From assembly GCF_009931435.1 (NCBI RefSeq), contig NZ_CP043414.1: 64,000 nt of DNA. One strand, written 5' to 3'. The position numbers and the translations under genes are program-made. The DNA comes from Escherichia coli. Its GTDB lineage: Bacteria > Pseudomonadota > Gammaproteobacteria > Enterobacterales > Enterobacteriaceae. The notes beneath the pieces are model-generated. The model searched no databases, was not told the DNA's origin, and worked only from the letters and a program-made list of their open reading frames with translations. Positions 47,094 to 47,190 of the stretch are shown here, one piece after another (position 1 is the stretch's first letter; each line of letters opens with the position of its first letter).

Positions 47094-47107
47094 TTGCGCT
47101 AAATCAA
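47094..47107 (+). promoter_or_regulatory. FNR-like site (TTGCGctaaATCAA) upstream of hcp
   Basis: Matches TTGAT-N4-ATCAA at 12 of 14 positions, about 100 bp upstream of the hcp start; hcp is a known anaerobically induced gene. Confidence 0.4.
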
Positions 47108-47165
47108 TCTCCCTTAAAGTTGCATGAAAAATCCCTTTTATCCCCGCGTTAAGCGTCTTAACCTT

Positions 47166-47190
47166 AAACATGTATATTAAATATAACTTT
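47166..47190 (+). promoter_or_regulatory. NsrR-like palindromic operator (aaacatgtatattaaatataactt) overlapping the hcp promoter
   Basis: AT-rich imperfect inverted repeat resembling the NsrR consensus (AAnATGyATTT-N-AAATrCATnTT), just upstream of the hcp RBS; hcp-hcr is a known NsrR target. Confidence 0.4.

Follow-up and report, generated by a model that had tools for sequence, protein, structure and literature searches.

Which regulators govern the hcp-hcr operon at this locus, and how are their binding sites disposed about the promoter from which it is transcribed? A first-pass annotation of the window, by which we mean the whole 64-kb stretch of E. coli DNA analysed here, had read an FNR-like site and an AT-rich palindromic NsrR-like site into the sequence just upstream of hcp. 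It had taken these as consistent with anaerobic and nitrosative-stress control of the hybrid cluster protein operon, and had suggested that the NsrR site overlaps the core promoter. We examined both sites with position weight matrices (PWMs), followed them across the Enterobacteriaceae and set them against the published experiments on this promoter.

The genes lysO, hcp, hcr, poxB and ltaE follow one another in that order, all on the + strand, an order common to K-12 (Table 1). The ORF lister opens hcp at a GTG codon (47198) that is part of the Shine-Dalgarno sequence AAGGTG; annotation and conservation both put the start at the ATG, 47204. From 47058 to 47215, an interval that takes in the whole intergenic region, the window is base for base identical to E. 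coli K-12 MG1655; nearby, K-12 departs from it only at 47057, by a synonymous change in the last lysO codon. A window position converts to the K-12 record NC_000913.3 as 913814 + (47204 - window position). Because the promoter sequence is identical, experiments on the hcp promoters of K-12 and CFT073 apply directly to this one. A 501-bp probe (46900-47400) found matches of 95-99% identity in 5,424 of the 5,426 complete E. coli genomes, and the genes annotated beneath it were lysO and hcp. With a 149-bp promoter probe (47058-47206), identity was at least 99% in 4,090 of the 5,424 genomes and 100% in the matches sampled, O157:H7 included. On either side, the lysO and hcp coding sequence shares only 95-99% identity with most E. 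coli (best 99.0%), while many of them have a promoter 100% identical to this one. At least 80% of the promoter probe was covered in 5,423 of the 5,424 matching genomes. In one sampled genome, that of the O169:H41 strain 2014EL-1345-2 (NZ_CP024223.1), the IS4-like element IS421 (~2588-3995 of the retrieved locus) interrupts the hcp promoter at the point that corresponds to 47144 in the window, leaving the NarL/NarP and FNR sites on one side of the insertion and the -10 region with the NsrR operator on the other. The 64-kb window contains neither fnr nor nsrR, and the presence of both genes in the genome is assumed from its Escherichia identity.

Table 1. Features of the lysO-hcp-hcr locus in window coordinates, with identity to the window in 78 other species where it was calculated.
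Feature	Coordinates	Strand	Identity to window	Basis or remark
lysO (ybjE) CDS	46161-47060	+		ORF list; K-12 annotation agrees
lysO third-codon positions			39%	
lysO (ybjE) stop codon TAA	47058-47060	+		ORF end; K-12 annotation
Intergenic region lysO-hcp	47061-47203			143 bp
Probable NarL/NarP 7-2-7 site TACCTCT-CT-GGCGGTA	47061-47076	.	85%	Centre 47068.5, -104.5 from inferred start
GC-rich inverted repeat/hairpin TGGCGGTAG-loop-CTGCCGCCA	47069-47090	+		Just after lysO stop; overlaps right heptamer of NarL/NarP-like site
FNR binding site TTGCGCTAAATCAA	47094-47107	.	99%	Centre 47100.5 (-72.5); same as K-12 ChIP-seq site
Second, weaker NsrR-like 11-1-11 site AAGTTGCATGAAAAATCCCTTTT	47117-47139	.		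17.7 bits; centre about -45
Putative -35 hexamer TTTTAT	47136-47141	+		17 bp upstream of TAACCT; CTTT 47135-47138 (near-)invariant
Spacer between -35 and -10	47142-47158		39%	17 bp
Putative -10 hexamer TAACCT	47159-47164	+		T47159, A47160 and T47164 (TAnnnT) (near-)invariant in 79 species
Main NsrR operator, 11-1-11 inverted repeat AACATGTATAT-T-AAATATAACTT	47167-47189	.	96%	PWM, conservation; same as CFT073 ChIP-seq site
Inferred transcript start (+1)	~47173	+		FNR centre 47100.5 + 72.5
Shine-Dalgarno AAGGTG for hcp	47193-47198	+		Read directly in sequence; conserved
hcp CDS (hybrid cluster protein)	47204-48856	+		ORF list, K-12 annotation; ATG 47204
hcr CDS (NADH oxidoreductase partner of Hcp)	48868-49836	+		ORF list and K-12 annotation geometry

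Matrix scans of all 64 kb returned both sites at the coordinates that had been proposed for them. For NsrR, we built the PWM from the 25 other distinct sites in Table 4 of Mehta 2015 (PMC5320621), leaving out the hcp site. The 23-mer AACATGTATATTAAATATAACTT, which ends 14 bp before the hcp ATG, scores 25.5 bits and takes rank 1 among the ~64,000 window positions, compared with a median of 19.6 bits for the training sites; each of its half-sites exceeds 12 bits. A score of 25.5 bits was reached 0 times in 200 Markov-1 random sequences of 64 kb, with 0 expected. The string quoted by the first-pass annotation as its AT-rich palindrome, aaacatgtatattaaatataactt (47166-47189), contains this canonical 23-bp unit. 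The same operator is occupied in vivo: AAGTTATATTTAATATACATGTT, the reverse complement of the window site, lies under an NsrR ChIP-seq peak in CFT073 whose summit falls 22 bp before the hcp start, only one 11-1-11 site in the CFT073 genome ranks above the hcp 23-mer, and hcp is up 43.7-fold with nitrate-derived NO in that strain (Mehta 2015, PMC5320621). In a Salmonella nsrR mutant, hcp mRNA is up 284-fold. Elsewhere in the window, the third-best NsrR match, ACATTTCCTTTTAATTGCAACTT (46066-46088, 15.1 bits), lies ~75-95 bp upstream of the lysO start and has one good half-site.

The FNR matrix was derived from the 62 other ChIP-seq-supported sites in Table S6 of Myers 2013 (PMC3688515), again with the hcp site left out. 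Starting exactly at the coordinate given by the first-pass annotation, TTGCGCTAAATCAA scores 13.2 bits and ranks sixth in the window, a score that about 1.2 positions per 64 kb are expected to reach by chance and that falls within the range of the training sites (11.8 bits upward, median 15.3). It matches the consensus TTGAT-N4-ATCAA at 12 of 14 specified positions, with a perfect right half, and matches to that consensus with two mismatches number 51 in the window versus 36 expected. Because of these two expectations, the site is marginal and does not stand above chance by sequence alone; its reality rests on its position, on its conservation in the 78 other species and on its identity to the K-12 site bound in ChIP-seq. 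As a positive control, the scan recovered known FNR sites at focA (6454), dmsA (20207) and aqpZ/ybjD (44838). By coordinate arithmetic, we take TTGTTCGGTATCAA (20207-20220) to be the dmsA site. The focA site ATGATCTATATCAA (6454-6467) and the aqpZ/ybjD site TTGCCCTAAATCAA (44838-44851) are both found in Myers Table S6. In K-12, an FNR ChIP-seq peak at hcp covers TTGATTTAGCGCAA, which is the window site read on the opposite strand, and hcp-hcr is classed as directly FNR-activated (Myers 2013, PMC3688515). Table 1 of the same paper gives the FNR position at hcp as -72.5, citing Filenko 2005, and a supplementary table gives an hcp RNA ratio of 0.43, which we read as Δfnr relative to wild type.

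To follow the two sites beyond E. coli, we retrieved hcp loci from 80 Enterobacteriaceae species and aligned the 230 bp upstream for 78 of them together with the window, 79 sequences in total. The 80 loci were kept without an E. coli or Shigella entry, and the closest Hcp in the species-representative collection is that of Escherichia whittamii. The centres of the FNR and NsrR sites are separated by 77.5 bp in 75 of the 79 loci and by 76.5 bp in three; the last locus is that of Trabulsiella, where the top NsrR match is the upstream site described below. Across the loci, the centre of the NsrR site lies anywhere from 24 to 35 bp before the ATG. Since the spacing between the sites is fixed and the distance to the ATG is variable, both sites are phased to a common promoter and not to the coding sequence. 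This cross-genus footprint, fixing the FNR-NsrR spacing at 77.5 bp, is a small addition to a known promoter, both elements of which had been predicted earlier from an alignment of eight enterobacteria (Rodionov 2005, PMC1274295).

Three operator positions vary, 47173 (T/C), 47176 and the central 47178, and two of these are degenerate positions of the NsrR motif, namely the Y of ATGyAT and the central N. Bases that depart from consensus are themselves fixed in 77-79 of the 79 species, both at 47097-47098 (the CG of TTGCG) and at 47183-47186 (the ATAA of the right NsrR half), a degree of conservation above what motif requirements alone explain. The fixed non-consensus FNR left half (TTGCG) and NsrR right half (ATATAAC) hint at selection for a tuned, sub-maximal affinity or at an additional overlapping factor.

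The placement of the transcript start near 47173 derives from the published FNR position of -72.5, which is a single number. With this start, the NsrR operator would span -6 to +17, covering the start point and the early transcribed region. The conservation pattern, read from the alignment, agrees with this placement, as conserved blocks at the putative -35 and -10 elements frame a variable spacer: the poorly conserved 17 bp are preceded by a conserved CTTTT (47135-47139) and followed by a nearly invariant block that begins at 47159. TAACCT would then occupy -14 to -9, a little more distant from the start than a -10 hexamer usually is. A generic sigma-70 and terminator scan of 46950-47300 gave no match, a result that is uninformative, as an activator-dependent promoter is expected to lack a consensus sigma-70 promoter. 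The overlap of NsrR site and core promoter proposed in the first-pass annotation is correct in substance, in that the operator would cover the start point; it calls for refinement in that the operator starts 3 bp past the probable -10 hexamer, leaving both the -10 and the -35 uncovered.

In addition to the main operator, the NsrR matrix picks out the site at 47117-47139 as its second-best match in the window. The first-pass annotation had missed this site, which lies between the FNR site and the -35 and overlaps the putative -35 hexamer. The left half alone, AAGTTGCATGA, reaches 9.6 bits, and Mehta 2015 (PMC5320621) gives the CFT073 counterpart, AAGTTGCATTA, as one of the half-sites beneath the NsrR peak at hcp. 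Trabulsiella (25.8 bits), Entomohabitans and Kluyvera have a strong, near-perfect 11-1-11 repeat here; the match is intermediate in Escherichia and in Klebsiella, and degenerate in Salmonella (3.9 bits) and in most Enterobacter/Leclercia loci (5 bits or less). It is at most a lineage-specific auxiliary operator. We put forward, tentatively and with some doubt, that a second NsrR operator of this lineage-specific kind may overlap the -35 region and the zone of contact between FNR and polymerase. If it is functional, the depth of hcp repression or its NO threshold would differ between genera.

Two further elements lie immediately downstream of lysO. The probable NarL/NarP site, also missed by the first-pass annotation, has two mismatches to TACYYMT-NN-AKRRGTA, its left heptamer being perfect and its right heptamer matching at 5 of 7 positions. 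Matches of this quality occur at chance level in the window (4 found versus 2.9 expected), and exactly 32 bp separate the centre of the site from that of the FNR site downstream of it. A location at -104.5 from the putative start would agree with the NarL/NarP position reportedly described for hcp. Rodionov 2005 (PMC1274295) refers to the hcp promoter as dependent on NarL/NarP. The second element, the GC-rich hairpin, folds as RNA with -16.5 kcal/mol (z = -4.2), and its stems pair in 66-78 of the 79 species, with a loop that varies in sequence and length. As no T-run follows, it is not a canonical intrinsic terminator; it could be a structure at the lysO 3' end or a protein site.

Several other organisations of this promoter have to be weighed against the one proposed above. 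The -10 element might instead lie inside the palindrome, for example at TATATT (47174-47179), with a start near 47186, NsrR sitting on the -10 and FNR at about -85. The wording of the first-pass annotation implies this arrangement, and TATATT is a better -10 match than TAACCT; even so, positions 47176 and 47178 within it, with an information content of 0.85 and 0.76 bits, rank near the bottom of the block in conservation, whereas the TAnnnT bases of TAACCT are (near-)invariant. The published FNR position of -72.5 (PMC3688515) also conflicts with a value of about -85.5, which is no usual class I position, and we consider the arrangement very unlikely. That a sigma-E promoter transcribes the operon, instead of or besides the FNR-dependent sigma-70 promoter, seems to us highly improbable. 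Myers 2013 (PMC3688515) did find hcp without sigma-70 ChIP enrichment and attributed it to sigma-E, citing Rhodius 2006; however, the main text of Rhodius 2006 has no mention of hcp, ybjW or b0873, a GGAACTT-N16-TCNNA arrangement was not found by eye in 47061-47203, and a missing sigma-70 signal is to be expected if NsrR represses in the nitrite-free conditions that were used. NsrR could also repress mainly or jointly through the 47117-47139 site, disturbing the contact between FNR and polymerase rather than blocking the start. The rank of that site in the window, its half-site under the CFT073 ChIP peak and its strong counterparts in Trabulsiella, Entomohabitans and Kluyvera speak for such a role, but it is degenerate in many species in which the downstream operator is intact. 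Salmonella is one of these, and its hcp is still derepressed 284-fold in the nsrR mutant; the NsrR ChIP summit, moreover, sits on the downstream site (PMC5320621). We judge repression by way of the upstream site to be unlikely.

Two readings would deny the palindrome its role as a DNA operator altogether. If the AT-rich repeat were kept for an RNA-level function in the 5' UTR, as a structure or translational element, the invariance of its right half (+7 to +17) in 79 of 79 species, departures from the NsrR consensus included, would be accounted for, since this half would be transcribed. The 5' UTR nevertheless shows no more structure than its shuffles do (-6.3 kcal/mol, z = 0.55), an Rfam scan gave no match, the left half lies mostly upstream of the putative start, and NsrR is seen on the palindrome DNA by ChIP-seq (PMC5320621), so that this explanation is extremely improbable. 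The other reading, that the FNR and NsrR motifs are chance matches with no regulatory role, draws on the weakness of the FNR match, with its two mismatches and its near-chance counts by both consensus and PWM. It is refuted already by the conservation and ChIP data, and we give it practically no credence: the two sites are 99% and 96% conserved in 78 other species versus 39% at neutral positions, their spacing is fixed, both are occupied in ChIP-seq on identical sequences (PMC3688515, PMC5320621), and no match with the score of the NsrR site is expected.

We conclude that this region is, with high confidence, the canonical Escherichia hcp-hcr promoter, activated by FNR and repressed by NsrR. 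The claim of anaerobic and nitrosative-stress control is borne out by published FNR and NsrR ChIP-seq on identical sequences in K-12 and CFT073 and by the regulator dependence described in the literature, Salmonella included. In the mechanism that we propose, FNR, which is active only without oxygen, binds TTGCGCTAAATCAA and, from 72.5 bp upstream of the start, would activate a weak sigma-70 promoter (-35 TTTTAT, -10 TAACCT) in the class I manner. Holo-NsrR, a [4Fe-4S] repressor of the Rrf2 family, binds the 23-bp inverted repeat and, lying across -6 to +17, would block RNA polymerase at the start even with FNR bound. A promoter that is bound by FNR yet blocked by NsrR is consistent with the presence of an FNR but not a sigma-70 ChIP signal at hcp in nitrite-free medium (PMC3688515). 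Nitric oxide nitrosylates the NsrR cluster; the repressor then dissociates from its operator, which relieves repression of the operon. The NarL/NarP 7-2-7 site at 47061-47076 probably adds a boost in response to nitrate or nitrite.

The FNR/NsrR promoter of hcp-hcr is already known and well characterised, and it has reportedly been studied in work by Filenko from 2005 and 2007 and in a 2010 paper in Biochem J. The interpretation offered by the first-pass annotation is supported, and the finding matters only as confirmation: a textbook promoter joining anaerobic and nitrosative-stress signals was recognised from raw sequence. The hcp promoter also serves as a reporter of NsrR and intracellular NO (pNF383), and no new biology follows. 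The lineage-variable second NsrR-like site is a small addition.

The closest comparison is with the K-12 hcp-hcr promoter, with which the window shares the FNR 14-mer, the NsrR 23-mer and the gene order, the regulatory region being without a difference. In class I activation of the FNR/CRP type, the activator binds at positions near -61.5, -71.5 or -82.5, on a helical face shared with polymerase. Going by its published position of -72.5, the hcp promoter would resemble these in having an activator dimer centred upstream of -60 on that face, together with a weak putative -35. The majority of promoters activated by FNR belong to class II, with the site at -41.5, and hcp is one of the few with a distal site (PMC3688515 table). 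As for NsrR, the ytfE and hmp operators of E. coli have in common with the hcp operator the 11-1-11 architecture AAGATGCATTT-N-AAATGCATCTT at or near the promoter, where NO relieves repression. The hcp operator differs from them in that its right half, AAATATAACTT, departs from the consensus AAATGCATCTT, with departures that are fixed across 79 species, and in that hcp pairs its operator with an upstream FNR activator site.
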